Below, piece by piece: positions 3,219 through 64,000 of a stretch of DNA of 64,000 bases (position 1 is the first letter of the stretch; each line of letters opens with the position of its first letter). The notes under the pieces were generated by a model that had not been told where the DNA came from, made no database searches, and saw nothing but the letters and a program-made list of their open reading frames with translations. The stretch covers positions 4,902 through 68,901 of the forward strand of contig CBDHCS010000005.1 of assembly GCA_965261125.1 (NCBI GenBank), in the 5' to 3' direction. Made by a program: the position numbers and the translations under genes. The DNA is from Candidatus Poribacteria bacterium. Its GTDB lineage: Bacteria; Poribacteria; WGA-4E; WGA-3G.

Positions 3219-3351
3219 CAGGACTTACGCATTCCCCCCGCTTGCGGGGGGATAAAGGGGGGTAAAACCTTGAAAAGGACAAAAAATCAGGGTTAATATC
3301 CGTGAAAGGACAAAATTCTAAACAGGGATACTTGAATTTGCGTAAGTCCTG
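3219..3351. repeat. MITE-like element, family A copy 1. Terminal inverted repeats CAGGACTTACGCA ... TGCGTAAGTCCTG, with internal core CGCTTGCGGGGGGATAAAGGGGGG
   Basis: Perfect 13-bp TIRs. The same element recurs at 7677, 17150, 20231 and 28289. Confidence 0.8.
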
Positions 3352-3451
3352 TATCAATAGGGTTATTTAGTTTTCTGTCTTTCTTGCGAAGTTTATCACA
3401 AATGTTAATATTATGTAATATTCTGTAGGCCGGGTAGAGATCAGTGGAACC

Positions 3452-3621
3452 CCATAGGTGTCAACTGAAGGAAATATTTCTTGTTCTAAAAACCCTTCTG
3501 AATTAGCATGACGATTCGGACTGTCCCATATTTCAGTCCCGACAAATATCAAAAAGCACATTTGTCGGGACTGAAGAGGGTTGCCCATGTTTAGAAAACC
3601 CTTAAATTGACACCTATAGTG
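3452..3621. repeat. Palindromic intergenic element (family F). Outer inverted repeat CCATAGGTGTCAA / TTGACACCTATAGTG encloses a 14-bp-stem hairpin (3534..3573). It is followed by a REP-like hairpin GTGCGGTTTgaaACCACAC
   Basis: Inverted repeats read directly. The right-end motif (TTAAATTGACaCCTATaGTGCGGTTTCCTAACC) recurs at 7610..7646. Confidence 0.6.
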
Positions 3622-3761
3622 CGGTTTGAAACCACACCTCTGAGTTAGCGGGCCAACTGATACGCTAAACCCACATCTATGGTTGTCAACGTTTACGAAT
3701 AAACACCGGGGTTGTGTCGATCATTGATGAAGGGTTGTTTGCTGGTAATACTGTGAGGCAA

Positions 3762-6068
3762 CTAACGAATCTGCCATAGCAGGATTGTGCCGTCGTAGCT
3801 GCCGCTGACAATAGTGTTTCCATCTGGAGAAAGAGCCACAGTGTGAACACCTTCCGTATGTCCTGTGAGTGTATTTTTGTGTTCTCCAGTATGTGCGTTC
3901 CACAATCGCACCGTCTTATCATGGCTGCCAGTAGCGATCGTCTTTCCATCCGGAAAAAATACTATGGAGAAAACTACTTCTGTATGCCCACTGAGTGTCG
4001 CTATATGTTTACCTGTGCTTGCGTCCCATAACTGCACTGGAGGATTGTCGCCGGTTTCTGTAGGGTCCAGGGTTGTAAGTTCGCCCGTATTTGCGCCCCT
4101 CAAGTGCTGTGGGGCGTTCTCGCCGTAAATTCCGGTAGCGAGAGTGTTTCCATCTGGAGAAAACGCTACAGACTTGACAGCCCCCTTATGTCGTAATGTG
4201 TTTTTGTGTTCTCCAGTCCGTGCGTTCCACAATCGCACTGTCTTGTCAGCACTTGCACTGGCGATAGTTTCTCCATCCGGAGAAAATGCCACGGAATAGA
4301 TCGGACCTGTATGTCCTTTGAAAGTTGATATGTTTTTTTCTGTTTGCGTATCCCACAAACGTACCGTGTTATCGAGGCTTCCTGAAACGATCGTGTTTCC
4401 GTCTGGAGAAAATGCCACGGAATAGATCCCTTCTGTATGTCCTTTGAAAGTTGATATGTTTTTTCCTATTTGTGCGTCCCACAATTGCACTGTATTGTCA
4501 AACTTTCCACCAGTAACTATCATATTCCCATCCGGAGAAAACATTACGGAATCAACATCACCCGTGTTCCGTCCTATGAGTGTATTTTTGTTTTTTCCTG
4601 TTCGTGTGTCCCACAACTGCACTGTTCCATCATGATGACCACTAACAATGGTTTTACCGTCCGGAGATAACACTATGGAAGTGATCGACCACGTATGTCC
4701 TGGGAGGGTGTTTTTGCGTTTTCCTGTTTGTGCGTCCCACAAATGTACTGTATTGTCCCAACTCCCCGTAGCGATAGTTTTTCCGTCCGGTGAAAACACT
4801 ACAGAAGTAACAGCACCTTTATGTCCTGAGAATGTGCTTTTGTGCTTTCCTGTTTGTGCGTCCCACAACCGGGCTCTACTCCAATGCCCAGTAACGATCG
4901 TCCCTCCATCCGGTGAATACACTACGGAGCGGGCACTATCTGTGAGTCCTTTTAGTGTATTTAGTCTACTTTTGTATTCTCCACTGTTTGTGTCCCACAA
5001 ACGTACCGTGTTATCTTTACTTGTAGTAACGATCGTCCTTCCATCCGGAGAAAATGCGATAGCACGGACACTGTCTGTATGCCCAGTAAGTGTATTTTTG
5101 TTCTTTCCTGCCTGAGTATCCCACAACCGCACTGTTTTGTCCTCACTCCCAATCGCAAGAATGTTTCCATTCGGGGAAAATGCTAAAGAAACGACATTAG
5201 GAGGAAATGCTGCAGAAGTGGCATAATCTGGTGGACCTCCTGTGGATACAGCCAAATCTGTACCTCCTGTGAATATAATTTTGTGTTCTCCTGTCTGAGT
5301 ATCCCACAACCGCACTGTGTTATCTCCACTACTCAGGGTAGCGATAGTAGCACTATTAGGGGAAAATGCTATAGAAGTAACAGACGATGTATGTCCTTCG
5401 AGTGTAGCTAAGTTTGTCCCTGTCCGTGTATCCCATAGCCGGACAGTTTTGTCATAACTTGCTGTAACAATCGTTCCTCCATCCGAAGAGAATGCGATGG
5501 CACAGACACTGTCCGTATGTCCAGTAAACAAGTCAATTTCTTTTTCTTTACCGGGACGCGCGTCATAAATCCAAATTCCGATGGAACTTGCAACGGCAAG
5601 CCGAGTACCATCCGGCGAGAAAGCGACATTTCCTGTTATATCACCTTTACCGAGGCGCGCTTTTGCACCTTCGGGCAGCGCCCATTGTGTATAGTCTACT
5701 GAGTCGGATAAACTCTGATTTGATTCCTGTCCCGTGCCATTACCTCTACCGGGAGTATCAGAATTATTTCCAACTATATTTCGAATATCCGGTTTTGCAT
5801 CAATCTCCTGGACTATAGGTGCATCAATAAGTTCTACTGCCATCTCAGACTGCATGTCCAAACTATAAGGTTGCTGGAAGCGCGCTAAATTCTTACTGCC
5901 CATGCCAAGTATGAACACAATCAAAATGGCACCAGATGCAGCCAACACCCACGGCATAAAAGGATTGCTTCCAGAAGGTGCAACAGGATTAAGATGTGCA
6001 ACTTCTCTCATTATGTTTTCAGTTAAGTTTGCGGATATTTGGAAATTGCTGAGTGCCTCTCTAATCAT
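3762..6068 (-). CDS. Membrane-anchored anti-sigma factor with a large periplasmic WD40 beta-propeller domain (about 14 WD repeats)
   Basis: 768 aa. The N-terminal cytoplasmic segment is followed by a TM helix (WVLAASGAILIVFILGM) and then repeated FSPDG...WD units. It lies 14 bp downstream of an ECF sigma gene, with an AAGGAGG RBS. Confidence 0.75.
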   Translation of the reverse strand: MIREALSNFQISANLTENIMREVAHLNPVAPSGSNPFMPWVLAASGAILIVFILGMGSKNLARFQQPYSLDMQSEMAVELIDAPIVQEIDAKPDIRNIVGNNSDTPGRGNGTGQESNQSLSDSVDYTQWALPEGAKARLGKGDITGNVAFSPDGTRLAVASSIGIWIYDARPGKEKEIDLFTGHTDSVCAIAFSSDGGTIVTASYDKTVRLWDTRTGTNLATLEGHTSSVTSIAFSPNSATIATLSSGDNTVRLWDTQTGEHKIIFTGGTDLAVSTGGPPDYATSAAFPPNVVSLAFSPNGNILAIGSEDKTVRLWDTQAGKNKNTLTGHTDSVRAIAFSPDGRTIVTTSKDNTVRLWDTNSGEYKSRLNTLKGLTDSARSVVYSPDGGTIVTGHWSRARLWDAQTGKHKSTFSGHKGAVTSVVFSPDGKTIATGSWDNTVHLWDAQTGKRKNTLPGHTWSITSIVLSPDGKTIVSGHHDGTVQLWDTRTGKNKNTLIGRNTGDVDSVMFSPDGNMIVTGGKFDNTVQLWDAQIGKNISTFKGHTEGIYSVAFSPDGNTIVSGSLDNTVRLWDTQTEKNISTFKGHTGPIYSVAFSPDGETIASASADKTVRLWNARTGEHKNTLRHKGAVKSVAFSPDGNTLATGIYGENAPQHLRGANTGELTTLDPTETGDNPPVQLWDASTGKHIATLSGHTEVVFSIVFFPDGKTIATGSHDKTVRLWNAHTGEHKNTLTGHTEGVHTVALSPDGNTIVSGSYDGTILLWQIR

Positions 6069-6082
6069 CGGTTCCTCCTTCT

Positions 6083-6628
6083 TTAGTCTTGCCTTGCACG
6101 GCTGAGCCTACTCTTAATCGCACTTGACGATACACCTAAAAATCTGCTAATCTCTTCACACGTCATGTTGCCGAAGTAGTGTAGGACCATTACCGTCCGC
6201 TCACTCTCTTTTAGTTTAGAGAGCAACTTTTTGACGACTTCGCGTTGTTCATCTACCGTAACTTTTGCTTGTTCTGTAGCGACATATTGGGAATATGTCG
6301 GTTCTTCTATTATCTCAGTATCTATGTCTTCAAGCGATTCTGTCTCCAGGTGTTTTTTACGGAGCCATGCAAGGCATTGGCGCGTTGCAATTACGTATAG
6401 CCATCCAGAAAACTGATTCGGGTTTTTCAAGGTTGCCAATTTTTGATAGACCTTGAGAAAAGTATCTTGCGTAATTTCTTCAGCGATGTGAAAATCGCCT
6501 ATTTTCCGCCAAGCGAGTGCATGCACCTGTTTTTGGTATTTTTCCACCAAACTGGCAAAGGCAGTATCATCACCTGCAAGGATACTATATATCAGTTCAG
6601 CATCGTTATTTTTCATCAGATACCTCAA
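6083..6628 (-). CDS. ECF-type RNA polymerase sigma factor (sigma-70 family, regions 2 and 4)
   Basis: 181 aa. Region-2-like (DDTAFASLVEKYQKQVHALAWRKIGD) and region-4 HTH (MTCEEISRFLGVSSSAIKSRLSRAR). Confidence 0.85.
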   Translation of the reverse strand: MRYLMKNNDAELIYSILAGDDTAFASLVEKYQKQVHALAWRKIGDFHIAEEITQDTFLKVYQKLATLKNPNQFSGWLYVIATRQCLAWLRKKHLETESLEDIDTEIIEEPTYSQYVATEQAKVTVDEQREVVKKLLSKLKESERTVMVLHYFGNMTCEEISRFLGVSSSAIKSRLSRARQD

Positions 6629-6875
6629 AAAAGTGATAAATTAATGTCCTCTATATATAGTGACGCGGGGAGAGGGCAAAACGGTCGCATAATTCTGAAA
6701 AAAACTGTGGTTCAAGCTGTTTTTTCATGGAATAGATAGATTTCACAGGGGAATTTATTTCACAAACTGGAAAATTTGAAAAGATGTTGAGCTGCTGATT
6801 ATCTCTATGGGGAGGTGTGGTTTCAGCGTGGGGAGACCTATTCAGAAGCAACTTTTTGTTTGATGTGGCACGCAA

Positions 6876-7076
6876 TTAACGTACCTTCCATAGCAGAATT
6901 GTACCATCATCACTACCGCTGGCAATCATGTTTCCATCTGGTGAAAACGCAACGGAAGTGAGGCTAAACGGATCCGCAGAGTGGGTATTAGTGTGTTCTT
7001 TTGTGCGGGTATCCATAGGCGTCAATTTAAGAAAAGTAAGAACGATTTTTTGAAAAAAGTTGTTAAATGAAAACAC
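6876..7076 (-). pseudogene. Orphan fragment of a WD40 gene (last blade only)
   Basis: VAFSPDGNMIASGSDDGTILLWKVR matches the C-terminus of the 3762..6068 protein (VALSPDGNTIVSGSYDGTILLWQIR). There is no upstream propeller. Confidence 0.4.
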
Positions 7077-7474: not shown

Positions 7475-7676
7475 GTTTTCGCAAGTCTATCATATACCTC
7501 CGAGAAGTTTTTGATAAAATAAAACGAGCCTTTCAAAACGGATGCTATATTGAGGGCGGGCTGATAGAAACACAACATTGGAACATCTTGAAAATGCTAT
7601 ACAAAATCATTAAATTGACGCCTATGGTGCGGTTTCCTAACCGCACTTATTAGGGTGTTCACATGTTTCAAATTTA

Positions 7677-7795
7677 CCGGACTTACGCATTCCCCCCGCT
7701 TGCGGGGTTAGGGGGGTAAAATAGGCAGAAATTGGAGTTTTTAACCCTCTAAAACCCTTATCAGGGGAACTTTTAAACACATTACGTAAGTCCTG
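7677..7795. repeat. MITE-like element, family A copy 2 (shorter variant)
   Basis: TIRs CCGGACTTACGCA / TACGTAAGTCCTG, with the CGCTTGCGGGG core. Confidence 0.7.
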
Positions 7796-11391: not shown

Positions 11392-11859
11392 CTCTCGTTT
11401 TAATAAACTTAAACAAGTTCACGCACCTCCAATTTATCAGATAACCGGGCAAAACGTCAACATAGAGTTGGATGTGTAAAGTTTTGGTTATATAATCTAA
11501 GTTGCCACATAGTAGCACAATTTGTTAGATTGTGTCTGTAAGGGCACAAACTAACAGATTGTGGGACAACTACTGTTATCCGCTATATTTCCGAAACAAG
11601 TTTATGAAAATGACCAATAACCTGAAAGTTCGCTGTATTAGGATAGGATACCATTTTTTATTATTCCCCCGCAACATCTCTGAACATCAGTGTTTCTACA
11701 AAAACTTTACACACTCCCTCTCAGGGTTATTTATAGTAAAGCCCATAATTATTTGGACACTTTTGTCCTTGTCCGCTCTCCCCCCGCTTGCGGGGGGTTG
11801 GGGGGCGGGATAAAGGAATATTTTCGTGTGTCCACTTAATTGTCGATTCTACTATAATG

Positions 11860-12250
11860 GGACACTTCTGTATCGCACCCTGTATGAAGATTAATTTATT
11901 AATTCGGTAATTTTCTATCCGTACGAGGCAAGTGTACTCCCCCGCTGGCGAGGCGGGGAATGCCTAAAGACGAATGCGCCTATGGCATTCGCCATGATTC
12001 ATACCCGGGGAATGCCAAAAGGCATTCATACCGTTGATTTCTTGATTTCTTCCTAACCTCGCCCAATTACCGAAATATTTTCTTAATCTTCATTTAGGTT
12101 GCGGACTCAGATGCACAACCTAAATGAAGATTAAGTTTTTAATTGGGTAATTATAATTTACTCCAAACCCCGGTAGGTGCGGTTTCCTAACCAATATATC
12201 TCCACGAATTACCTAATTTATTTTTTTATCTTCATATAGGTTGTGCTACA
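11860..12250. repeat. Composite family-D MITE (about 250 bp, long TIRs of the form TATGAAGATTAAtttattAATTCGGTAATT ... AATTACCGAAATATTttCTTAATCTTCATtTAGGTTG) plus extra solo TIR copies
   Basis: Internal GGAATGCC..GGCATTCC palindromes. The same architecture recurs at 24444, 37389, 43018 and 49570. Confidence 0.7.
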
Positions 12251-12384
12251 ACTTCTCTTGTCCGTTATGTTTCTGAAATAGGTTTATGAAGTTGAGATCG
12301 GTATTTGATTAGTTTTGTCGCTGACACCTTGCTGCGTGAGGGTAACGCCTAACTCATGAGAAACGACAGAGAGCAAGTGGCTTG

Positions 12385-12750
12385 TTAGCGCACCCCACTT
12401 TTTCGTGAGGCACGCATCGTTTTGCCATCTATAGCAACTGCGTCAAGACATCTTGTCAAATCGGGACAGCTTTCTATCATGATGTGGACCCATTGTGTCA
12501 GGGTTTCTTCTAATACCACAACATTTAATCTTTTCAATAGATTATGAATAGTTGCAGCACAAGGTGTTTTCTTGTGTGTCCATCCGAGTGCTTTTGCGAG
12601 TTTCGGTTGGGTTCGTGCCTAAGTTGCGATGGAGGTATACCCTTTATGTCCACACATCAATCCGATAACGATAAGGGCAAGAATGGATTTCAACGGATGT
12701 CGTCTTCCTTTATTCTTGCGTAGGTCTTCAAGTTTTGCTAACATATTCAT
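12385..12750 (-). mobile_element. Relic of an ISAs1-family (H-repeat) transposase, N-terminal third only, with an in-frame TAG
   Basis: The minus-strand translation MNMLAKLEDLRKNKGRRHPLKSILALIVIGLMCGHKGYTSIAT*ARTQPKLAKALGWTHKKTPCAATIHNLLKRL...AIDGKTMRASRK matches the ISAs1 N-terminal pattern (RHPL..IL...I.A.L.G; AIDGKT.R.S). Confidence 0.5.
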
Positions 12751-13023
12751 CAAGTGGCAAGATATTCTTCTTGTCATTGTTCACCTCAAAATAGGTAGTT
12801 TTAAGGTGAAGTATAGCAGGTATGGTGTCCAAAATCACGCTATATCTGCTTTTCATAAATAATAACAAATGTGATAAAATCTACCCGAAAAACCTAAAAC
12901 TAAATAACCCCGCGTGAAGATAGAAAGAGTTGAAAAAAGTTAGCAGATTTGATAAGCTGCGTTTGCATAGGATAGCCTCCTAATGCATAATGAGTCCTCA
13001 GTTTTTATCAATTAGGATGATGT

Positions 13024-13166
13024 CTTACTGGTTTACTCGCTAAACATTTATTATATACAAACTTACGTAATAGGTTCAAAAGCCTTCTCCCCTCGCTTGC
13101 GGGGGGATAAAGGGGGGTGTATTTACGGAATTCGAAACACAAAAACTTACCGAGTGAACCACTTAC
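13024..13166. repeat. MITE-like element, family B copy 1 (TIRs TAAGTGGTTnACTCG / CGAGTnAACCACTTA; shares the GCGGGGGGATAAAGGGGGG core with family A)
   Basis: Also present at 22588, 26218 and 26421. Confidence 0.7.
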
Positions 13167-14473: not shown

Positions 14474-14634
14474 AATCGTGTAGTAGCTGCGGTTTCCTAA
14501 CCGAACTAAATACTTTACACCTATTTTTCTACTATTGACAATTTAGTGGCGCTACGTTACAATAACAACTACTCGTAAAACAGTTGTTTAAAGAAGCGGA
14601 ACAGCAAGCAGTATAAAAATTACAAGGGGACAAA

Positions 14635-17059: not shown

Positions 17060-17149
17060 TGGCAACTTGTTTCAAAACAGCTTGCCCATAAAGGCATGAA
17101 TTACGTGAGGATGTGCATAAAGTGGTTTCCTAACCACACTTTATACATC

Positions 17150-17309
17150 CAGGACTTACGCATTCCCCACGCTTGCTATTCTTAGCCCCTCGCTTGCGGG
17201 GGGTTGGGGGGATAAAGGGGGTAAAACCTTGAAAAGGACAAAAATCAGGGTTAAAATCCGTGAAAGGACAAAATTCTAAACAGGGATACTTGAATTTGCG
17301 TAAGTCCTG
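17150..17309. repeat. MITE-like element, family A copy 3 (carries a 21-bp internal duplication CGCTTGCTATTCTTAGCCCCT)
   Basis: TIRs CAGGACTTACGCA / TGCGTAAGTCCTG. Confidence 0.8.
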
Positions 17310-20230: not shown

Positions 20231-20354
20231 CAGGACGGACGCATTCCCCTCGCTTGCTATTCTTAGCCCCTCGCTTGCGGGGGGTTGGGGGGTCGGGATA
20301 AAGGAGGGTGTATTAGAGTATTCAAAACACAAAAACGGACCGAGTAAACCACTA
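20231..20354. repeat. Chimeric A/B-family element (A-type 5' TIR CAGGACGGACGCA, B-type 3' end CGAGTAAACCACTA) that abuts the thrC stop codon
   Basis: The last 3 nt of the element (cta) form the thrC TAG stop on the minus strand. Confidence 0.65.
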
Positions 20355-22300: not shown

Positions 22301-22394
22301 TTTCCGATAATTCCTATACTTTCTATAGACATTATAATGATTTAATTTGAATTATAGTAAAATCTAAAAATACGTGAGCACTTCGAATGACAAC

Positions 22395-22545
22395 CTACCT
22401 TTACACCCACTGCTGGCGAGGCGGGGAATCATGGCGAATACCATACGCGTATTCGCCAAATGGCATTCATACCCGGGGAATGACTAAATGTCATTCATAC
22501 CGTTGATTTCTTGATTTCTTCCTAACCTCGCCAATGTCCAGATAA
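22395..22545. repeat. Partial family-D element (core without TIRs)
   Basis: CTGGCGAGGCGGGGAATCATGGCGAATACC...CGTTGATTTCTTGATTTCTTCCTAACCTCGCC. Confidence 0.6.
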
Positions 22546-22587
22546 TTGTGGATTTTACTATAAGGTTTACCGATCGTCTTGGACCTC

Positions 22588-22755
22588 TTTAGTGGTTCAC
22601 TCGCTAAATATTTATTGTCCATAGAACTTACGGCATAGATCTAAAAGTCCCTTCCCCTTGCCATCGCATGCGCGTGTGGCATGCGAATTGGGGGGATAAA
22701 GGGGGGTGTATTTTCGGATTTCAAAACACAAATACTTACCGAATGAACCATTTAG
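22588..22755. repeat. MITE-like element, family B copy 2
   Basis: TIRs TTAGTGGTTCACTCG / CGAATGAACCATTTAG. Confidence 0.65.
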
Positions 22756-22826
22756 TCCCGTAGGGACGATATGTTTATAGAAAACGTTTGTCCACGGGAT
22801 CTTTAGTCCCGTAGGGACGATATGTT
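22751..22826 (+). promoter_or_regulatory. Paired-hairpin motif, locus 1: two identical 25-nt units TTTAGTCCCGTAGGGACGATATGTT separated by a 26-nt spacer that begins TATAGAAAAC
   Basis: Read directly. A second locus at 53729..53798 has the same architecture and spacer start but different, still self-complementary, hairpin arms. Confidence 0.5.
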
Positions 22827-22899
22827 ACTATAGCACAAAACCCAAAATCTGTGAAAACAACAAAAACAATTAGTTAACTGGTACAAGTCGTTATACTTT

Positions 22900-24443: not shown

Positions 24444-24690
24444 TATCACACCCTGTTAGGTTGTGTCCGATGTATTTTGTGTCACAACCTATATGAAGAT
24501 TAATTTATTAATTCGGTAATTTTCTATCCGTACGAGGTAAGTGTACTCCCCCGCTGGCGAGGCGGGGAATCATGGCGAATACCATACGCGTATTCGCCAT
24601 GATTCATACCGTTGATTTCTTCCGAACCTCGCCAAATTACCGAAATATTTACTTAATCTTCATTTAGGTTGTGTCCGATGCTTTAAGGAA
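24444..24690. repeat. Family-D composite MITE, copy 3. The cca stop codon lies inside its right TIR
   Basis: Left TIR CTATATGAAGATTAATTTATTAATTCGGTAATT, right TIR AATTACCGAAATATTTACTTAATCTTCATTTAGGTTG. TTAGGTTGTGTCCGATG is directly repeated at both outer ends (24455 and 24664). Confidence 0.7.
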
Positions 24691-26115
24691 CTGAAAGTGT
24701 GAATATGCTTCCGATTTAGAGTTAATTTTCCCATCCAATTGTGCCGCAAACATATCCCAAAGTATTGTTGCAAAGGATTTTCCTGGCTTTTCACCCCACT
24801 GAATCAGATCATCGCCCGTAATAAAAGGCTGTACCTTCCGCAAAGTCCAAAGGTAATCTCCAATACTTTTACGTTGCGCATCCGAATATCCTAAAACAAG
24901 TGCTTCAAGCGAAAAAGGTTTTAGAGTTTGATAAATTTTGCTGGGTGCAGTTGTTTCCGTAAAAGAATCCACGACACCTAACAATTGGCGATATGCGGTT
25001 AGTGGTGTCTGTACTTTATATATGGTTTTATTTTCATATACGTAAGTTAATCTGTTTTCGGCATCAACAATGCCCCATTTTCCGTTATGATCCCAAATAG
25101 AAGCATTTTCAGATAGTTCCAAACCAAGTTTCTCAAAAACGAATCGGACTGTTTTTTTAGAAGGAATTTCTTGATTCAACACTTGCGTTGCGCTTGCTAT
25201 GCGGCGGAGTTGATGCTCCAATACAAGTCTGAAACAGAGAGCCTCAATCTGATATATCGGCATTCCATGCAAGTTGTTTATGCCGAATAACGACATCCAT
25301 CGCACAATATTTGGCTGAAAATCTTCTCCAGTAATATGCTCTGATGCCCATGAAATTGCTTGTTGTGCGGTTTGAAAATCAGACGAGAAAGTCCGAGAGA
25401 TTTTCCAGCCCGGAAAAATTGCCTGATATGCACCCAATTTCGCAAGTGCTTGAACAATTTGGGGCGCGTTGTTTTCAAGTAAGACTCTGTCAATTTCGTT
25501 CCGTATCCGTTCACCACTAAGCTGCGCTAAAAGTCCGATTGCCTCTTTAATGAGCAGTCCATCAGTCACCGCAATACCGAAGTCATAACGTCCCGCATAT
25601 CTGCAAGCACGAAAGATACGAGTTGGATCATCTGTGTAACTCTGGTCGTGGAGAACCCGAACGGTGCCGGTCTTAAGATCGGCAAGTCCACCCGTTTTAT
25701 CAATAACGTCCCCAAAATGAGTGGCATCTAGCCGCATTGCTAATGCGTTGATAGAAAAATCTCTCCGCCGTAAATCCTCTGTTATCGTGCCATTTTCTAC
25801 CTTAGGTAACGTTCCAGGCTTTTGATACGTTTCACGCCGTGCAGTGACAAAATCAACTTTCGGTTTAGTCGGATTTGCTGGTGTGACGGTTGCTGTGCCA
25901 AACTGTTCATGCACCTGCAAGGTACCATCCCAACGGTTTTGCATCTCTTTTGCAACGCTGATTGCATCTCCTTCCACCACAATATCAATATCAAAAGTGG
26001 GGCGTTTTAGTAGAAGGTCTCTGACCAATCCGCCAACAAGATAGACATGCTTTCCACCGACTTCACCGATTTCGTGTAATATGTCTAAAAGCAATTCAGG
26101 GATATCAGGTGTCAT
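24664..26115 (-). CDS. cca: CCA-adding enzyme / poly(A) polymerase family tRNA nucleotidyltransferase
   Basis: YLVGGLVRDLLL...DIDIVVEGD head-domain motifs. Confidence 0.8.
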   Translation of the reverse strand: MTPDIPELLLDILHEIGEVGGKHVYLVGGLVRDLLLKRPTFDIDIVVEGDAISVAKEMQNRWDGTLQVHEQFGTATVTPANPTKPKVDFVTARRETYQKPGTLPKVENGTITEDLRRRDFSINALAMRLDATHFGDVIDKTGGLADLKTGTVRVLHDQSYTDDPTRIFRACRYAGRYDFGIAVTDGLLIKEAIGLLAQLSGERIRNEIDRVLLENNAPQIVQALAKLGAYQAIFPGWKISRTFSSDFQTAQQAISWASEHITGEDFQPNIVRWMSLFGINNLHGMPIYQIEALCFRLVLEHQLRRIASATQVLNQEIPSKKTVRFVFEKLGLELSENASIWDHNGKWGIVDAENRLTYVYENKTIYKVQTPLTAYRQLLGVVDSFTETTAPSKIYQTLKPFSLEALVLGYSDAQRKSIGDYLWTLRKVQPFITGDDLIQWGEKPGKSFATILWDMFAAQLDGKINSKSEAYSHFQFLKASDTT

Positions 26116-26136: not shown

Positions 26137-26550
26137 TTAGTGGTTCACTCGCTAAACATTTATTATATAACCTAAGTTGCCACCTTCTTTGTAGCATAAT
26201 CTGTTAGATTGTGCATCTTAAGTGGTTTACTCGCTAAACATTTGTTACATATAGAGTTTACGGCATAGATCCAAAAATCCCCTCCCCTCGCTTGCGGGGG
26301 GATAAAGGGGGGTGTATTTAGGACGTTCAAAACACAAAAACGGACCGAGTCAACCACTTAGCGCAAGCATCGCTAAAGGATAACGTCTTTATGTAGCATA
26401 ATCTGTTAGATTGTGCATCTTAAGTGGTTGACTCGCTAAACATTTATTATGGACAAAACTTACGGCATAGATCCAAAAATCCCCTCCCCTCGCTTGCGGG
26501 GGATAAAGGGGGGTGTATTTAGGACGTTCAAAACACAAAAACTTATTAGC
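26137..26550. repeat. Cluster of family-B MITEs (one solo TIR at 26137, full copies at 26218..26346 and 26421..26548) interleaved with the GTAGCATAATCTGTTAGATTGTGC motif
   Basis: Two full copies in tandem within 400 bp; near-identical internal sequence. Confidence 0.7.
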
Positions 26551-26586
26551 GGAACATCACTAAGGATAACGTCCGTTGCTGCAATC

Positions 26587-28124: not shown

Positions 28125-28195
28125 AGGTCGCGATTCGGAGATCGCTCCTACAAAAATCTTGTCCAGGGTAGGAGGGAACTCCGATTCCCGACTAT
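28125..28195. repeat. Family-C palindromic element (GTCGCGATTCGGAGATCGCTCCTAC ... GTAGGAGGGAACTCCGATTCCCGAC)
   Basis: About 70-bp imperfect palindrome. Other copies at 33036..33085 and 60100..60180. Confidence 0.65.
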
Positions 28196-28288: not shown

Positions 28289-28452
28289 TAGGACTTACGC
28301 ATTCCCCTCGCTTGCTATTCTTAGCCCCTCGCTTGCGGGGGGTTGGGGGGGGATAAAGGGGGGTAAAGCCTTGAAAATGACAAAAATCAGGGTTAAAATC
28401 CGTGAAGGGACAAAATTCTAAACAGGGATACTTGATTTTGTGTCCGTCCTGA
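28289..28452. repeat. MITE-like element, family A copy 5
   Basis: TIRs TAGGACTTACGCA / TGTGTCCGTCCTG. Carries the same 21-bp internal duplication as copy 3. Confidence 0.75.
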
Positions 28453-29225: not shown

Positions 29226-29483
29226 GGATTCTCCTATGCGACATACGGTTTATTTTAATAACGTGAGTTCGGAAATAAAGAAACGGGAGCTGAATGTCCG
29301 AAATAACTTGAATTTGGGGTATAGGTATGTGAGTGTTTTGCCTATTGGACCATCTAAAACCTTCAAATAGGGAAACAAACGACTGTCCCACGAACTGTTA
29401 GTTTGTGGAGCAACTACTGTGTCCGTTATATTTCCAAAACAGGTTTATGAAAGCGTCCCAATCATTTCAAGGTTCACCATAAA

Positions 29484-33029: not shown

Positions 33030-33310
33030 TCTGTAGGAGCGATCTCCGAATCGCGACAAAACGAATAATAGTCGGGAATCCAAATCAACGGTATGGATGC
33101 CTTTTGGCATTCCCCGGAGTTCCCATCTACATCTCAGATGTCCAGTTAATTGTAGAATCCATTATAATTATCTGAACCAAGATGGACAAGATTATAGGAT
33201 TTTCAGGATGAGTCCAATCCTATGCGGAGACTCCAATCCTGACCATCTTGTCCTCCCGGGGAATGCCTAAATGGCATTCCCCGTATGGTATTCTGCATTG
33301 GTTAGGAAAC
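33030..33310. repeat. Family-C partial copy followed by a divergent family-D copy
   Basis: CTGTAGGAGCGATCTCCGAATCGCGAC, then a region with GGAATGCCnnnnGGCATTCC palindromes and a terminal GGTTAGGAAACCG hairpin. Confidence 0.55.
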
Positions 33311-33394
33311 CGTACCTACCGTCGTATATAAATAATTATAGATTTTACTATAAACAAAACTGTTAACTGATCAGTTAACAAGACGTTCTGCGAT

Positions 33395-37388: not shown

Positions 37389-37583
37389 GTAGCATAACCT
37401 GTTAGGTTGTGCATATTAGTCCGCAACCTAAATGAAGATTAAGAAAATATTTCGGTAATTTGGCGAGGTTAGGAAACCTCGCCAGCGGGGGAGTACACCT
37501 GCCTCGTACAGATAGAAAATTACCGAATTTATAAATTAATCTTCATACAGGTTGCGGTACAGAAGTGTCCCATTAATTATAGG
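37389..37583. repeat. Family-D composite MITE, copy 5 (reverse orientation)
   Basis: Same modules as 11860 and 24444. The element creates an artificial 5' extension of the downstream ORF (37552). Confidence 0.7.
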
Positions 37584-41694: not shown

Positions 41695-41842
41695 AATTCT
41701 TGTTTTTGTAATATTGGATACTGTATCTATATAAAAGTTTGAAAGTTTTGTAGAGCAAACTGTCAGTTTGCGTTTTCACAAGCACAATCTCACAGATTAT
41801 GCTACAAAGAGGGCAACTTAGGTTAAAATGATCAAAGAGTGT

Positions 41843-43030
41843 TTAAAAATCCTGTCCGATTGAAAAAGTATAGACTGCAGTGCCTTGGACGATATGAATG
41901 CGTTCATCCTCAGACACACTCGGCTTGAATTGAGGGGTATAAGCGGCATTTAGTGTAATGTTTCCGAACCGTGCCCCAAATCCGAAGCAGAGACCTTCTG
42001 CTTTCCAATTTCGCTCCTCCATTTCAAACGTAGCATCTTCCAAAAGAAAAACCGAAGCGTAACGCTTTTCAGTGTCCCTAAGGTATCCGATTCTACCGCC
42101 GATACGGTCGTGAAACCAAACTTCAGCGCCAAGGTTCGCTCGGACACCATCACTAAAAGGAGGGTGTAAATCAAATCCGAGCCGTAAAGACACGTTTGAA
42201 ATTTCGCGTTGGTAAGTTATACCCGCAATAAGATTGCGGCGAATTTTATCTGGAATAACGGGATCAACAAACGACAATCCATTACTTAAATTACGGATGA
42301 CAATGCCTGCCTGAAGTGCATTTCCAAATTTCTGAATGAGTCCGATATCATAGACGTAACCACGTCCGAGATGCTCGGTTTCCGACGGATCGGTAACTTT
42401 AGACCGCAACCACTTTGCATCAAATCCAATGAAGGTGCCTCTGAAACAATTTACACCGTAACCGAGTCCAATAGCAAGGTTATTTTTTGGAAAACTATTG
42501 AGTGCTTTTCCTTCGTGGTCGACACGGCGAAAGGATCCTTCATGTGCTGTAGATAAAGCAAAACCTATAGTGCCGAATCTGCCTATTGGAAATGCGCAAT
42601 TCAATGTTTCAATACCGGCAGCACGCTGTTCATACTGGCTATAATCCTCGTAGTTTGCATTGAAATTCGGTTTAGAAAGGAGGGCAACGGTCCGTGGAAA
42701 ACGTGCCATGTGAATTACAAATTGATCTCCCTTAGCAACACCGATACCAGCGGGGTTGTTACCAAGCGCGTTTGCGCCAGTGGTTGCCCCGACAAAACTT
42801 CCACCCATTCCACGATGCTCAGCACCAAGCAACTGTTTGAGAAATCTGTCTGCTTCTGCAGTTGTATTTGCCACTGAGGCGGTACCATTTGAAACATAAA
42901 AACAGGAAACAAGGTAGAATAGGCAAATCAACAAAGATATTTTTAAATACTGTAGTGACTGAATCTGGCAGAGCGAGGATCGTAAATTTCTTTTCACTTT
43001 CTTACTTACTCCAAGGGCATATTGTAGCAT
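41843..43030 (-). CDS. Putative outer-membrane beta-barrel protein
   Basis: Signal-like segment, alternating amphipathic strands, C-terminal ...YTFSIGQDF ending in Phe. The ATG at 43030 lies inside a repeat; a GTG at 42997 is an alternative start. Confidence 0.45.
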   Translation of the reverse strand: MLQYALGVSKKVKRNLRSSLCQIQSLQYLKISLLICLFYLVSCFYVSNGTASVANTTAEADRFLKQLLGAEHRGMGGSFVGATTGANALGNNPAGIGVAKGDQFVIHMARFPRTVALLSKPNFNANYEDYSQYEQRAAGIETLNCAFPIGRFGTIGFALSTAHEGSFRRVDHEGKALNSFPKNNLAIGLGYGVNCFRGTFIGFDAKWLRSKVTDPSETEHLGRGYVYDIGLIQKFGNALQAGIVIRNLSNGLSFVDPVIPDKIRRNLIAGITYQREISNVSLRLGFDLHPPFSDGVRANLGAEVWFHDRIGGRIGYLRDTEKRYASVFLLEDATFEMEERNWKAEGLCFGFGARFGNITLNAAYTPQFKPSVSEDERIHIVQGTAVYTFSIGQDF

Positions 43031-43300
43031 AATCTGTTAGATTGTGCTTATGAGTGCGCAAACTGAATGAAGTTTAAGAAAATAAATCGGTAATTTGGCG
43101 AGGTTAGGAAGAAATCAAGAAATCAACGGTATGAATGACATTTAGTCATTCCCCGGGTATGAATACCATTTAGGTATTCCCCGCCTCGCCAGCGGGGAGT
43201 ACACCTACCTCGTACGGATAGAAAATTACCGAATTAATAAATCAATCTTCATACAGTTTGCGCTACGAAATTTCGTGAATTGTGTCTGTATATTAGGTTA
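43018..43300. repeat. Family-D composite MITE, copy 6, with outer GTAGCATAATCTGTTAGATTGTGC flank
   Basis: Same internal order as copy 7 (49570). Confidence 0.7.
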
Positions 43301-49569: not shown

Positions 49570-49826
49570 TTGTAGAGCAACCTGTTAGGTTGCGTCCGCT
49601 ACGGCACAACCTAAATGAAGTTTAAGAAAATAAATCCTAAATGAAGTTTAAGAAAATAAATCGGTAATTTGGCGAGGTTAGGAAGAAATCAACGGTATGA
49701 ATGCCATTAAGGCATTCCCCGCCTTGCCAGCGGGGAGTACACCTACCTCATACGGATAGAAAATTACCGAATTAATAAATTAATCTTCATACAGATTGTG
49801 CTACAGAGATGGCAACTTAGATTAGG
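49570..49826. repeat. Family-D composite MITE, copy 7, inserted between hslV and hslU. Contains an internal 27-bp tandem duplication CCTAAATGAAGTTTAAGAAAATAAATC
   Basis: Read directly; same module order as copy 6. Confidence 0.75.
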
Positions 49827-53690: not shown

Positions 53691-53728
53691 AAAATCCTCC
53701 TTTATATATAACACCAAAAGTATTCAGT

Positions 53729-53798
53729 CGCTCCAGCGGAGCGATATGTTTATAGAAAAATGTTAGTCCTCTCTACCGCTCCAGCGGAGCGGTATGTG
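53729..53798 (+). promoter_or_regulatory. Paired-hairpin motif, locus 2: CGCTCCAGCGGAGCGATATGTT, then a 26-nt spacer TATAGAAAAATG..., then CGCTCCAGCGGAGCGGTATGTG
   Basis: Same architecture as 22751..22826 with compensatory arm changes (GTCCC/GGGAC to GCTCC/GGAGC). Lies 40 bp upstream of the nitroreductase start codon on the minus strand. Confidence 0.5.
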
Positions 53799-55166: not shown

Positions 55167-55169
55167 TTC

Positions 55170-60099: not shown

Positions 60100-60180
60100 T
60101 TGTCCGTCGCAATTCGGAGATCGCTCCTACCGATGGACTGCTTATGGTAGGCGGGAACTCCGATTCCCGACTCCTATTCA
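60100..60180. repeat. Family-C palindromic element, copy 3
   Basis: GTCGCAATTCGGAGATCGCTCCTAC...GGTAGGCGGGAACTCCGATTCCCGAC. Confidence 0.65.
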
Positions 60181-60214
60181 AGATCCATCAATTAGCACTT
60201 GATAAAGCAGTAGT

Positions 60215-60625: not shown

Positions 60626-61056
60626 TGGTCACCTACGCCAACAGTTTGCTATAGTTTAGCACAACTTGAATGGATAAGGCAAGCAGAAAAACGCGTGAAT
60701 CAGAGGCATTCAATTGTCACAGAATACTCTCGTGGGATGGTTTTCTAAGTCCGATATTATAAAATTTCCGCTTTGTCTGAACCAAGATTCTCATGATTGA
60801 AGATTTTGTCCCAACAGATCATTCACAGGGCGCAAAGTTTATGATGCATTGTGCTAAATCCGCAAGAGGCACCTTGATGAAAAATAATCTTGGTAATCTG
60901 CTAATCCTGAAAATCCTGGTTCAGACAATAAGATTCAGAGATTGACATTTAATCCAACCTATAGTAGAATAAATACAACGTTAAAATGATTTATATATTG
61001 CCCACGTTTTTCTATCCAGACAGGTGTTTAGCACAACGCAAAAGGAGAACAAACCG

Positions 61057-62151
61057 ATGAAAAACACGTTGTGTTTAATTTTGACAGCACTGTTGATAGC
61101 ATTCACATTTACATTTAACAGTCTTGCCCAAACCCCACAGGATGATCCACAACAGGGGGATCCACAACAAGGGGATCTCCCTGATGGCGCGGAAGTGCGG
61201 TCCGGGCCTGAGCAAGGTAGGATCAGAGATATAAAGTTTTCCCCCGATGGCACACGCCTTGCAGTGGCGAGAAGCCGCGGTATTTGGCTCTTGGATGTCC
61301 AGACAGGTGACGAACTTGTGCAATTCACAGGTTTTGCGGATTCTGCTGCTACTATTGCATTTAGCCCGGATGGCAATATGTTGGTCGGTAGTAGCATAAA
61401 GGACAATACCGTTCGTTTGTGGGATGTACACACAGGTAGGAACATCCGAGCATTCAAAGGACGCAGTAAGAAGAATTGGGTAGGGGACGTAGCGTTTAGT
61501 CCGGATGGCAAAACTATCGTAATTAGGCGTTGGAACAAAACCCTCTGTCTATTGGATCTGAACACAGGCAAAACCCTCCGAATATTCAAAAAGGATACAG
61601 AAAAGATATCACGTGTTGCGTTTAGCCCGGATGGTAGGACTATCGCAAGTAGCGGTGAGGATAAAACTGTGCGTCTGTGGGATGCACACACGGGCAAAAA
61701 CCTTCACACACTCACAGGGAATACGGAAAGGATATGGCACGTAGCATTTAGTCCGGATGGCAAAATGATAGCAAGTAAAAGTAATGATGATACTGTGCGT
61801 CTGTGGGATACGCACACCGGACAACCCCTACGCACAATATATATGTCTTCTCTTGGCTTCAACTTTGCGTTCAGTCCGGATAGCAAGATGATCGCATGTA
61901 TCGGTTTCGGTACTATCGATCTATGGGATGTGAACACGGGACAACACTTACGAAAACTCATAAAAACCTACAGACGACTAGCTTCTACACTGAATATCGG
62001 ACGCTTGATTGCGTTCAGTCCGGATGGCAGGATGATCGTAAGTGCTGGTCCATTTGAAGTCCATCTGTGGGATGCAAACACAGGACAACTCCTCCGAAAA
62101 CTCATAAGTCATCCCAAAGGCACTGATGTACGATCATTCCAAAGGAACTAA
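61057..62151 (+). CDS. Secreted WD40 beta-propeller protein (paralog 1)
   Basis: RBS AAAGGAG. Signal peptide MKNTLCLILTALLIAFTFTFNSLAQ, then about 7 FSPDG...WD blades. Confidence 0.75.
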   Translation: MKNTLCLILTALLIAFTFTFNSLAQTPQDDPQQGDPQQGDLPDGAEVRSGPEQGRIRDIKFSPDGTRLAVARSRGIWLLDVQTGDELVQFTGFADSAATIAFSPDGNMLVGSSIKDNTVRLWDVHTGRNIRAFKGRSKKNWVGDVAFSPDGKTIVIRRWNKTLCLLDLNTGKTLRIFKKDTEKISRVAFSPDGRTIASSGEDKTVRLWDAHTGKNLHTLTGNTERIWHVAFSPDGKMIASKSNDDTVRLWDTHTGQPLRTIYMSSLGFNFAFSPDSKMIACIGFGTIDLWDVNTGQHLRKLIKTYRRLASTLNIGRLIAFSPDGRMIVSAGPFEVHLWDANTGQLLRKLISHPKGTDVRSFQRN

Positions 62152-62154
62152 CCG

Positions 62155-63417
62155 ATGAAAAATAGATTGTTTTCAATTTTGACAGCACTTTTGATAATAG
62201 CATTCACATTTACATTTAATAGTCTCGCCCAAGATTCACCGCAAGAGGATATAGAGGATTTACTTGAATCAATACGAGAGAAAGCAAAGGATTTAAGTAA
62301 GGCCGAGAAAACGGGCGCGGTCAATAAACTTGTTTATTCTACCAACGATATAAGTTTTTCCCACGATGGCAAACGGCTCGCGTTGGCAGGGAACTACGGC
62401 ATTTTGATCTACGACATTCAGAGAAATCGCAAAAACGTTCAGGCAAGTTACAAACCTACCAAATTGAGAGAACATCAGAGGAGAGGGTGGCGGGTAGCGT
62501 TTAGTCCAGATGGCAAGCTAATCGCAAGTGCGAATGCTACAGGCACCCTTTACCTATGGGATGCGAAAACGGAAAAACTCCTTCGGACAATCGAAGGTGA
62601 GCCAGGATATTCACCTTTCTCGTGTATGGCATTTAGTCAGGATGGCAGGATACTCGTTACCGGAGGGAACAAGATTATCACAAGGGATCCTTGGATAAGC
62701 GAGGGCATAGTGCTTTTGTGGGATGCACAGACAGGAGAACACATCCGAACCCTAACAGGACATACGAGACATGTCGATAGTGTGGCATTTAGTCCGGACG
62801 GCATAACTATCGCTGCGGGTGACTCCGTCACTATCAGGGCAGATGGTAAAGACAGTGGAGATGCCACAGTGCGTTTATGGGATGCACGGACGGGAAAACT
62901 TCTTCGGACCTTAATGAGACATGGGGGTGAGATCAAATGCTTGGCGTTTAGTCCGGATGGAAAACTGCTCGCAAGTGGTGGGCCGTTCGACCCTGTTCGT
63001 TTATGGGATGTAAACACCGGACAACACATCAGAACACTCGCAAGTGATAGGACAAGAACTCCGAAGGATCTGGATCAAGGGAGGCCGTCGTTTGATTCGG
63101 TAGATAGCATTGCATTTAGCCCAGATGGTAGCACACTTGCAAGTTCCAGTATACTGCGGGCCCGCCTATGGGATGTAAAACGGGGACGACTCCTCCTAAA
63201 ATTCAGAGACCAAAATTCAGGCAATGGTCCTAGTGTAGTGGCGTTTAGTCCAAATGGAAAGACTATCGCAATCAGTAGAAGTTATGAACTTGAGCAAATA
63301 GTTCCCAAAAGCAATGGCGTTAAAATTACGAAAGAAATAGAACTGTGGGATGCGGAAACGGGAAAACATCTCCATAGGATCAAGTTAGAAAGGTACAGAT
63401 TCCAAATTTACCGATGA
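62155..63417 (+). CDS. Secreted WD40 beta-propeller protein (paralog 2)
   Basis: Signal peptide MKNRLFSILTALLIIAFTFTFNSLAQ is nearly identical at DNA level to paralog 1. It starts 3 bp after the paralog-1 stop. Confidence 0.75.
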   Translation: MKNRLFSILTALLIIAFTFTFNSLAQDSPQEDIEDLLESIREKAKDLSKAEKTGAVNKLVYSTNDISFSHDGKRLALAGNYGILIYDIQRNRKNVQASYKPTKLREHQRRGWRVAFSPDGKLIASANATGTLYLWDAKTEKLLRTIEGEPGYSPFSCMAFSQDGRILVTGGNKIITRDPWISEGIVLLWDAQTGEHIRTLTGHTRHVDSVAFSPDGITIAAGDSVTIRADGKDSGDATVRLWDARTGKLLRTLMRHGGEIKCLAFSPDGKLLASGGPFDPVRLWDVNTGQHIRTLASDRTRTPKDLDQGRPSFDSVDSIAFSPDGSTLASSSILRARLWDVKRGRLLLKFRDQNSGNGPSVVAFSPNGKTIAISRSYELEQIVPKSNGVKITKEIELWDAETGKHLHRIKLERYRFQIYR

Positions 63418-63512
63418 AAAACACGTTGTGTTCAATTTTGACAGCACTGTTGATAGTACTCACGTTTACATTTGATAGCCTTACCCAAACTCCGCAGGAT
63501 GATCCATAACAA
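63414..63512 (+). pseudogene. Third copy of the signal-peptide cassette, ending at a stop after 32 codons (MKNTLCSILTALLIVLTFTFDSLTQTPQDDP*)
   Basis: ATGA overlap with the paralog-2 stop, exactly as between paralogs 1 and 2. Followed by a GCGGTTTCCTAACC hairpin. Confidence 0.4.
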
Positions 63513-64000
63513 GAGCATTAAATATGTTTACACTCCCCGGTAGATGCGGTTTCCTAACCAATGCAGAATACCGGACGCTTATGCTGCCGGAGTTTTCTCC
63601 AAAATTACAGAAATGATAAATTAATCTTTGGACAGTTTTCTCTACAGAAGTGTCCCGTTAATTGTAGGTTTTTCTATAGCGGATGTATTTAGGGCGTTCA
63701 AAATAGAAATCCACGATAATTAGCGTTACGTTCCAATACCGTCAGTTTATCACAAAATTAGCTACTGTCAATCTGTTTTACAAAAATAAACTATAGAAAA
63801 AATGTTGCATGCCTGCTGCAAACGTGGTATAATTACTATAATTTGATCACATGTCCAAAACGATATTACCAGAGATACACACCTCCAGATTTGCACAGCG
63901 GGTTCTCTCGTCATGAGAGTCTGATGCAAATATGAAGGGGGTGGACGTATAAACCCAATGCGGAGTCTTGCGGCTCCAGTAAACCCAGGAGGTTATTTTT

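Follow-up and report, generated by a model that had tools for sequence, protein, structure and literature searches.

The RUP repeats of Streptococcus pneumoniae have ends that match those of the insertion sequence (IS) IS630-Spn1; they are presumed to be moved in trans, target TA dinucleotides and often lie within other mobile elements (PMC2229807). IS elements that target repetitive extragenic palindromes (REPs) sit almost exclusively in the REP hairpins, and joining their flanks restores the REP; the survey of these elements covers the families IS3, IS110, IS4, IS256 and IS5, with IS1397 and ISKpn1 (IS3), IS621, ISPa11 and ISPpu9 (IS110) and ISRm22 (IS4) as examples, and does not mention IS630 (PMC1525189). 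REPs of the GTAG type carry an unpaired tag at one end, a stem of 6-13 bp and a short loop, form sub-families through complementary changes and occur as head-head or tail-tail dimers with spacings from a few to tens of bp; the abstract and the GTAG-families section of their survey make no mention of Poribacteria (PMC3733652). Here, we set against these systems the intergenic repeats of a 64,000-nucleotide stretch of a Candidatus Poribacteria genome (assembly GCA_965261125.1, contig CBDHCS010000005.1, positions 4,902 to 68,901 of the forward strand), referred to in the following as the window and numbered from its first letter, in which several families of miniature transposable elements with inverted repeats (MITEs) and REPs share blocks of sequence.

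Poribacteria are uncultured, widespread symbionts of sponges, and their genomes are known from metagenomes only. The original prediction, made from the letters of the window, saw in its repeats a single network of at least four MITE-like families (A to D) and REP-like hairpins, the modules of which were either reshuffled by recombination or moved by one machinery for all. The shared blocks are a property of the miniature mobile elements of this DNA. In our judgement they are probably explained by the nested transposition of independent elements, i.e., small elements inserted into other small elements, and not by one shared machinery. Family D is the miniature form of a 1.24-kb IS of the IS630 family that is intact in other genomes and, like its parent, inserts in the centres of hairpins.

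The window was compared with itself by BLAST, and the counts of motifs were set against the expectation from shuffled sequence. Repetition is of two sorts, one inside long open reading frames (ORFs) and the other non-coding and located between ORFs. The non-coding repeats amount to 3.7 kb, or 5.8% of the window, which is below the 8-10% given earlier, and by our reading one or more elements are present in 19 of the 23 gaps of at least 150 bp, somewhat short of the almost complete occupation that had been described. All six named motifs lie far above the shuffled expectation, and the repeats are thus real. The ends of family A (CAGGACTTACGCA, at most 2 mismatches) have 9 matches versus 1.16 expected, at 3219/3339, 7677/7783, 17150/17297, 20231, 28289 and 3853, the last of which (2 mismatches, inside a WD40-repeat gene) is probably due to chance; each of the five family A copies listed at the outset (3219, 7677, 17150, 20231 and 28289) hence has at least one A end. 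The ends of family B (TGGTTYACTCGSTAA) have 8 matches versus 0.32 expected, at 13029/13147, 22593/22736, 26141, 26223, 26425 and 20337. The 24-nt core said to be identical in A and B has 4 matches (exact at 3239, 13094 and 26289) and the 29-nt ends of family D have 12, with 0 expected in both cases. The two REP motifs R1 (GTAGCATAATCTGTTAGATTGTGC, first noticed as a "flank") and H (the short REP-like hairpin TGCGGTTTCCTAACC) have 6 matches versus 0 expected and 7 versus 0.07 expected, respectively. The terminal inverted repeats (TIRs), of 13 nt in A, 11-15 nt in B and 28-31 nt in D, are all far above chance. The MITEs measure 112-216 bp, contain no ORF and are present in 4-6 copies per family in the 64 kb.

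Family D, its IS630-family parent and the hairpins they enter

Family D has six complete copies in the window, each with both 29-nt ends. Two of the D copies proposed earlier do not belong with these: the one at 22395 is a D core that lacks the ends, and the one at 33085 is not D. The copies differ mainly in carrying zero, one or two units of a hairpin module of about 35 nt, called E.

11884..12093, minus strand: family D MITE (IS630-derived), 210 bp, its core holding two hairpin units of the E type, in the loop of an R1 REP
12124..12235, plus strand: D-type shell, 112 bp, in which an H-type REP is carried, placed exactly at the centre of an R1 palindrome (flanks complementary at 10/10 positions)
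24493..24663, minus strand: family D MITE, 171 bp, absent from the related locus L001
37432..37546, plus strand: basic family D MITE, 115 bp, without E unit, in an R1 loop; core hairpin GGCGAGG-TTAGGAAA-CCTCGCC; DNA fold z = -9.4
43067..43252, plus strand: 186-bp MITE of family D that holds one and a half E units, seated in the middle of GCGCAAACTG-A-CAGTTTGCGC
49641..49790, plus strand: 150-bp MITE of family D, its core hairpin loop holding a single E unit (49684-49719), with a duplicated left end just upstream
22412..22534, minus strand: D core with E units and without D ends (the earlier copy at 22395)

The loop of the D core hairpin (37463-37484, TTAGGAAA) is the same as that of the H REP at 7627-7646, which reads GGTTAGGAAACC on the opposite strand, and D may accordingly have captured an H-like REP as its cargo.

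For comparison, one genome per species was scanned for the 17-nt head of family A, and the matches gave about 0.9-0.96 Mb of Poribacteria DNA, which served as the sample for all families (its loci are numbered L001, L002 and so on). The head is present in at least 112 stretches, nearly all of them from 21 Poribacteria assemblies that include several single-contig chromosomes of 4-6 Mb, so the elements are spread across the phylum; four matches in other phyla are probably chance, since about 70 chance matches are estimated for a 17-mer in such a collection. The window itself fits this lineage, as the gene for the CCA-adding enzyme (24664-26115) has its best named homologues in Candidatus Poribacteria and is 95% identical in protein and 96% in DNA to that of L001. 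A cyanobacterial origin, with Nezha elements or small dispersed repeats, had been considered because of the WD40 genes and the G+C content; it was rejected on the strength of these homologues and of the genome scan. L002 is a more distant relative (87-89% identical) in which gaps of 22-60 bp stand in place of the 250-600 bp of the window, and all elements between the compared genes are absent from it. This sample bears on whether the mosaic could have arisen artificially when the metagenome was assembled or binned, through the collapse or misjoining of repeats. The window does come from a metagenome-derived contig, and many IS copies are isolated contigs of 1.24 or 1.34 kb, so repeats do break assemblies; however, the same families, junction types and target-site duplications (TSDs) recur in the 21 independent assemblies, several single-contig chromosomes among them, and the flanking genes are intact and syntenic with those of relatives. 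We regard an artefact as very improbable.

An intact parent of family D is found at L112 2331-3570, inside the head hairpin of an A copy. In this IS of 1240 bp, inverted ends of 31 nt (ATGAAGATTAATTTATTAATTCGGTAAT...) adjoin a single ORF of 384-395 aa, the product of which scores 179 bits against the IS630 family transposase model NF033545 of NCBIfam (cut-off 100) and is also above the cut-offs of Pfam DDE_3 and HTH_32. The left ends of the D copies at 11884 and 24493 and the right end of that at 49641 are identical to one end of the L112 IS over 31 nt, and a comparison of 16 ends has 14 invariant columns. A second IS from an independent data set, with a transposase 85% identical in protein, has the same ends. 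The transposase family comprises 1385 proteins at E <= 1e-40, many of them on contigs of about 1241 bp, as expected because the repeat breaks assemblies.

Both D and the parent IS insert at the centres of palindromes. In a first set, which comprised 26 copies of D or the IS taken from the window and from Poribacteria loci and in which the 10 bases to the left and right were scored for complementarity, the flanks are complementary at 7 or more of 10 positions in 19 copies, a value reached by only 0.5% of random positions, and the same single base stands on both sides in 25 of the 26. A second set, of 30 further full-length IS copies from three other transposase clusters, reduces to 20 distinct sites; all 20 are located at a palindrome centre, and in 17 the flanking base, which can be A, T, G or C, is the same on both sides. 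Combined, one identical base flanks the element at 42 of 46 sites. The insertions are hosted by GTAG REPs (R1 and H), by the A head hairpin, by the hairpins of a family called F and by E hairpins, and uninterrupted copies of each exist. In every empty host compared, the insertion has added the element plus one base, which is the central base of an odd-length loop. An orthologous empty site is available for the D copy at 24493: L001 has the uninterrupted REP CACAACCTAATAGGTTGTG, where the window reads ...CCTAA[D]ATAGG..., one base having been gained. A one-base stagger would be the simplest reading of these junctions. As IS630 elements would be expected to duplicate TA, every placement of the D boundaries was tried, and none fits the empty sites or leaves TA on both sides. 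An orientation-specific insertion of D was also considered, given that the five readable window copies share one orientation relative to the REP, and was dropped since full-length copies elsewhere are found in both.

R1, H and family C are GTAG-tagged REP units that occur in part as doublets of the REPIN type (REP doublet forming hairpins). The C palindromes and the short hairpins of the original prediction are all real and belong here.

11512..11567, plus strand: R1 doublet of REPIN type, GTAG-tagged hairpins inverted and 9 nt apart; DNA fold z = -6.2
41750..41805, plus strand: R1 doublet with the GTAG tags outside
37389..37412, plus strand: R1 unit, its inverted partner (37423-37431 and 37547-37560) split by a D element
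43024..43047, plus strand: R1 unit (the earlier "flank that travels with D"), its partner split by D at 43067
49572..49594, plus strand: R1 unit, its partner split by D at 49641
29385..29411, plus strand: R1 variant tagged with GTCC, its tail of 40 nt conserved
28127..28193, plus strand: family C, GTAG-tagged REP dimer with tags inside (...CTCCTAC-16 nt-GTAGGAG...); DNA fold z = -4.5
33033..33130, plus strand: family C dimer with tags outside, the loop of the second hairpin holding a 35-nt E module (33081-33115)
60106..60172, plus strand: family C dimer with tags inside; DNA fold z = -2.8
7627..7646, plus strand: H unit GTGCGGTT-TCCT-AACCGCAC
3619-3637, 14483-14506, 17120-17141, 33295-33321 (minus strand) and 63538-63572: other H units

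In R1 (GTAGCATAATCTGTTAGATTGTGC), an unpaired GTAG precedes a stem of 8 bp with a loop of 3 nt; across the three REP types the stems are of 7-8 bp and the loops of 3-4 nt. The GTAG tag precedes 23 of the 36 hairpins of R1 form in the sample, and the stem varies by compensatory change (AAC/GTT in 12, ATC/GAT in 6, ACC/GGT in 3). C units start with GTAGGAG, and H units at several sites with GTAG(G/A/C)TGCGG. R1 occurs as single units or as inverted doublets 9-10 nt apart, H mostly as single units, and the doublets fold well (z from -2.8 to -6.2). R1 seems to travel with D because D occupies the loop of the second REP of a doublet (3/3 cases) and leaves the first as its neighbour; the flank held to accompany B and D copies is thus an independent REP. 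These REPs are presumably moved by a REP-associated tyrosine transposase, for which L204 provides a lead: there, an IS copy lies in an R1-type doublet directly after a gene whose last 66 residues match NF047646, the model of that transposase, with E = 9e-13, and the sample of this contig carries H and G modules (G is described below) of the Poribacteria type.

Families A and B and their insertion sites

Families A and B are classical non-autonomous MITEs of the DDE type, each with its own TIRs and with 5-bp TSDs at AT-rich sites. They have in common a 31-nt block, K, which forms a hairpin in one A subtype.

3219..3351, plus strand: family A MITE of the K-hairpin subtype, 133 bp, 13-bp TIRs, TSD TATCA; DNA fold z = -5.6
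7677..7795, plus strand: family A MITE, 119 bp, TSD TTTAC, its body in the form common in other Poribacteria
17150..17309, plus strand: family A MITE, 160 bp, TSD ACATC, with an extra CGCTTGC-14 nt-CGCTTGC block in the K hairpin
28289..28451, plus strand: family A MITE, right end degenerate, no clean TSD
20231..20351, plus strand: chimera of A head and B tail joined in the shared K block, no TSD (TTCAA versus CTAAG)
13029..13161, plus strand: family B MITE, 133 bp, ends TGGTTyACTCGsTAA, TSD CTTAC
22593..22750, plus strand: family B MITE, 158 bp, TSD TTTAG, precisely absent from L001
26141..26356, plus strand: composite B, TSD CTTAG, in which an R1 piece is nested (26191-26214) and a further left end of B lies at 26223
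26425..26559, plus strand: B copy with a degenerate right end, in a 202-bp tandem duplication

A 5-bp TSD flanks three of the five A copies and three B copies (CTTAC, TTTAG and CTTAG) of the window. Among the 109 A copies with both ends in the Poribacteria sample, for which 119-134 bp is the commonest size, 53 have a perfect 5-bp direct repeat, and the sites are AT-rich. The insertion-site check in relatives that had been proposed for these repeats gave a second empty site besides that of D at 24493: in the same spacer between scpA and scpB, L001 reads GGACCTC-TTTAG-TCCC where the window has the B copy 22593-22750, and the adjoining DNA is about 88% identical. On the evidence of L001 and L002, these elements have moved during the divergence of close lineages.

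Several side observations concern the body of family A. The three A-type copies at 17172-17200, 20253-20281 and 28311-28339 carry CGCTTGC-TATTCTTAGCCCCT-CGCTTGC in the K hairpin, and the 7-nt direct repeat around the 14-nt filler could be the footprint of an earlier insertion. In OZ242381.1 (L158 5123-5367 and 6085-6570), A copies display a minisatellite-like tandem amplification of the head hairpin and a 67-nt unit. An IS4-like parent of A was proposed from L160 635-2115, where A ends enclose a DDE_Tnp_1 ORF and BLAST suggested that A is a deletion derivative. This candidate was rejected: the relatives of the transposase have ends of their own (CACTTACCCCCATTTTT), measure 1335-1357 bp and duplicate 9-13 bp, and in L160 and L173 the IS4-family IS is merely nested, in both orientations, in the K hairpin of an A copy. 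This 1.34-kb IS is located at L160 751-2085 and L173 2353-3688, as well as in L185, L186 and L187, and inserts into GC-rich or AT-rich palindromes. In one case the host that it occupies in the K hairpin is a 54-nt "mini-A" formed by the two ends and K only.

The window carries no intact transposase gene, as had been stated. A Pfam scan of 20 window ORFs returned housekeeping genes or no match and no transposase; only one relic is present in the window:

12284-12777, minus strand: ISAs1-family transposase gene relic, frame-shifted and truncated, unrelated to A, B and D (Pfam DDE_Tnp_1_assoc, E = 7e-10)

The ISAs1 relic of the original prediction is accordingly present; its IS4 relic was not found, and tblastn of IS630-like, IS4-like and IS982-like transposases against the window gave no remnants.

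The same evidence speaks to whether these repeats are functional elements (terminators, promoters, mRNA stabilisers or small RNAs) that the host has selected and kept for their structure. This would agree with the compensatory changes that preserve pairing in the REP stems, with the almost exclusively intergenic position of the elements, with the recurrence of a 30-nt module ending in TATAAT, sometimes directly upstream of genes, and with the insertion between scpA and scpB, which parts genes that are 22 bp apart in a relative. However, TSDs and precise presence or absence in closely related genomes are signs of transposition, IS elements as well as the elements themselves are interrupted by these repeats, the two repeat-rich gaps scanned have no excess of sites resembling terminators or promoters, and a search of the window at the Rfam gathering thresholds, together with a tRNA search, gave no RNA family and no tRNA. 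Selection for function is therefore an improbable general explanation, although single copies may have been exapted.

Two side observations belong to this subject. The gap between scpA and scpB measures about 600 bp in the window (22301-22899) versus 22 bp in L002 (13025-13048) and is filled with F, B, D-core and G modules, which may uncouple the two genes transcriptionally. The G module (GTGTCCAnTTAATTGTAGATTTTACTATAAT, 30 nt, ending in TATAAT) has 27 occurrences in 18 loci, and those of the window are at 11835, 22535, 33133, 33330, 37565 and 63650 on the plus strand and at 11740 and 22340 on the minus strand; some copies lie 40-70 nt upstream of gene starts, and a simple sigma-70 scan did not call the module a promoter.

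Nesting, recombination and the growth of the mosaic

Most of the shared blocks are an intact small element inside an intact larger one, of which uninterrupted copies exist. A copies host D in L112, L157, L175, L180 and further loci, a D end hosts A in L115, and the IS4-family IS occupies the K hairpin of A in both L160 and L173, where 9 bp are duplicated. A nest of three levels was observed at L126 722-1979, where an IS982/IS4-like element (742-1871, DDE_Tnp_1) is inserted in a D element that itself lies in the loop of an F hairpin.

Module E is made up of the 9-nt tag AAATCAACG, a variable hairpin and CCC(G), about 35 nt in all, and has 38 copies. E occurs in at least five host contexts of which other copies lack it, namely the loop of the D core hairpin, the family C hairpin (33081-33115), F hairpins, the A bodies of another species and a further hairpin; an E-empty D core (37463-37484) can be set beside an E-filled one (49671-49728). 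The comparison of these paralogous hosts suggests that E is mobile in its own right, and its sites bear no duplication. What was described as a fusion of families C and D at 33 kb is in fact a C hairpin that holds an inserted E module.

Recombination is real in the window and secondary. The chimera at 20231, which does carry an A end and a B end as described, has no TSD, and synteny with L002 ends exactly there; recombination is the best reading of it, as a crossover of an A copy with a B copy would be expected to produce such a structure. A tandem duplication of 202 bp includes B and REP sequence (26190-26311 versus 26392-26513, 89% identical). The third candidate product of recombination is block K, which is native to one A subtype, is also present in the B of a second species (L150) and occurs once in the window outside any A or B element:

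11780..11816, plus strand: K block alone (CCCCCCGCTTGCGGGGGG...ATAAAGG)

K may owe its presence in both families to recombination. A scan of viral contigs for the K hairpin gave 69 single matches that looked non-specific and were not used.

These cases also speak for the original prediction of one network of recombination-reshuffled modules, or of one transposition machinery for all. The chimera without TSD at a synteny break, the identical 24-31 nt of K in A and B (that of L150 included), the 202-bp duplication spanning B and REP, and the equal length of the duplications made by A and B all fit it. However, the ends of A, B and D are unrelated to each other, so that even the 5-bp duplications of A and B go with different ends; D goes with an IS630-family transposase of its own and differs in its insertion signature; the architecture of C, R1 and H is that of REPs; and most shared blocks are complete elements within complete hosts. 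One network of that kind is unlikely to account for the whole: as a source of modules, recombination retains the chimera and perhaps K, and most of the remainder would be nested elements.

Under nested transposition, several independent kinds of small element would colonise the intergenic DNA of the Poribacteria chromosome and enter one another, chiefly in the loops of their hairpins (A and B as DDE-type MITEs, each with its own ends; D and the IS630-family parent entering hairpin dyad centres and usually duplicating the central base once; REPs presumably moved by the tyrosine transposase; and E units probably entering the loops of unrelated hairpins). Each insertion would bring new palindromes, which would be new targets, and because new elements carry palindromic targets, the mosaic would grow like Russian dolls. 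Homologous recombination between copies would add a minority of the structures, i.e., the chimera at 20231, the duplication at 26.2-26.5 kb and perhaps K.

A more far-reaching reading holds that D and its parent represent an IS630 lineage of hairpin centres that makes a one-base stagger, has abandoned the TA target and is guided by symmetry or by an extruded structure, and that E is a distinct class of tiny mobile DNA that spreads into hairpin loops. To this we would give slightly less than an even chance.

Several points weigh against these interpretations. IS630/Tc1-mariner elements are defined by a duplication of TA, with which the one-base duplication is in conflict, and 3 of the 20 distinct sites of full-length IS copies lack the single duplicated base. 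The case for the mobility of E comes from paralogous hosts and not from an orthologous empty site. K has neither ends nor duplications of its own, and nesting leaves it unexplained. The intact transposase sought for the ends of A or D was found for D, as an IS630-family enzyme in other genomes; no autonomous element with A or B ends was found in the approximately 0.96 Mb of Poribacteria DNA, and the status of A and B as MITEs therefore rests on their ends, their TSDs and one empty site. The link to a tyrosine transposase is one 66-residue gene fragment outside the window, in another assembly, and no gene for a REP-associated tyrosine transposase was seen in the window or, by regular-expression motif searches, in the sampled Poribacteria loci. 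Finally, the source is metagenome-assembled, and copy numbers and some junctions could reflect assembly.

The window contains further small families, two of which, M and S, had been missed in the first inspection.

11470..11716, plus strand: family M, MITE-like, ends GGrTGTGTAAAGTTTTkG, enclosing the R1 doublet 11512-11567
33172..33256, plus strand, and 60775-60926: family S, palindromic, ends GTCTGAACCAAGAT... / ...ATCCTGGTTCAGAC, similarity judged by eye, without statistics
22751..22833, plus strand: two F units (a GTCCC-GTAG-GGAC hairpin, then GATATGTTTATAGAAAA), with a variant at 53725-53762

Family M, a MITE/IS family with the ends GGGTGTGTAAAGTTTTTG(TCAC), has longer copies of 1090 and 854 bp with terminal direct repeats in OZ242381.1 (L101 5915-7004 and L140 4575-5428). 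A further S-like copy, judged by eye, lies near 5700 in L083. The F hairpins host D and E insertions in other genomes.

The repetition inside ORFs is located at 3758-5527, 34053-34837 and 61047-63511, in ORFs of 768, 781, 375 and 420 aa, and includes no MITE. The periodicity of 126 nt at 3758-5527 and 61047-63511 is typical of WD40 repeats and suggests them, and 34053-34837 is a triple repeat with a unit of 264 nt. The tandem 126-nt units, probably WD40, of the ORFs 3762-6068 (minus strand) and 61024-63417 (plus strand) are the source of most families reported by the repeat finder, and the gap 6872-6946 contains a fragment related to them.

Significance and comparison with known systems

A dense set of MITEs and REPs that extends over the phylum explains the fragmented state of Poribacteria assemblies. 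The repeats can serve as markers for strain typing, flag intergenic regions that annotation pipelines will misread and are likely breakpoints of rearrangement, the synteny of the window stopping at the A/B chimera. A relative of IS630/Tc1-mariner that inserts at hairpin centres with a one-base duplication would offer a testable case of a change in the target rule of a DDE transposase, and IS630 would become the sixth IS family known to home in on REPs. The proposal that insertions make new targets is likewise a testable account of how thickets of repeats grow. The basic picture of bacterial mobile DNA is unchanged, and the results are of use mainly for Poribacteria genomics and for specialists in transposition. 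None of the papers listed by a literature search on Poribacteria with MITE or REP terms contained the name Poribacteria; we regard the repeats as genome parasites of a known type, in a lineage for which they lacked an earlier description.

Family D resembles RUP and IS630-Spn1 in being small and non-coding, in having TIRs that match an IS630-family IS, in its presumed mobilisation in trans and in its frequent nesting. In contrast to RUP, D and its parent IS use the dyad centre of hairpins, where usually one base (A, T, G or C) is duplicated. The parent of D is like the REP-targeting IS elements in that it lies in REP hairpins and that joining its flanks rebuilds the REP, and the IS4-family element seated in the K hairpin of A recalls ISRm22. 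Unlike the REP-targeting IS elements, the Poribacteria IS630-type element has abundant MITE derivatives with the same targeting.

R1, C and H share with GTAG REPs and REPINs (Di Nocera 2013; Bertels and Rainey 2011) the tag, a stem of 6-9 bp, the short loop, the variants and the dimers, and one related doublet, a single case outside the window, abuts a tyrosine transposase gene. R1 units differ from simple REPs by their conserved tails of 20-40 nt. The intergenic mosaics of short hairpin repeats in variable order are similar to the bacterial interspersed mosaic elements (BIMEs) of E. coli and to the small dispersed repeats of Nostoc, and they differ from both in phylum and sequences and in that much of the nesting can be assigned to a transposon family with a defined hairpin-centre target. 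For Nostoc punctiforme, Elhai et al. reportedly described in 2008 repeats of 21-27 nt inside larger repeats and MITEs; E is longer, at about 35 nt, and has a fixed 9-nt tag. If the reading of E as a mobile unit is true, it would also be a class distinct from the GTAG and CGTC REPs. In all, every component of the mosaic has a known counterpart in IS630-derived MITEs, GTAG REPs and REPINs, REP-targeting IS elements, and mosaics of the BIME and Nostoc type, and the hairpin-centre IS630 lineage would, if confirmed, be a new variant among them.

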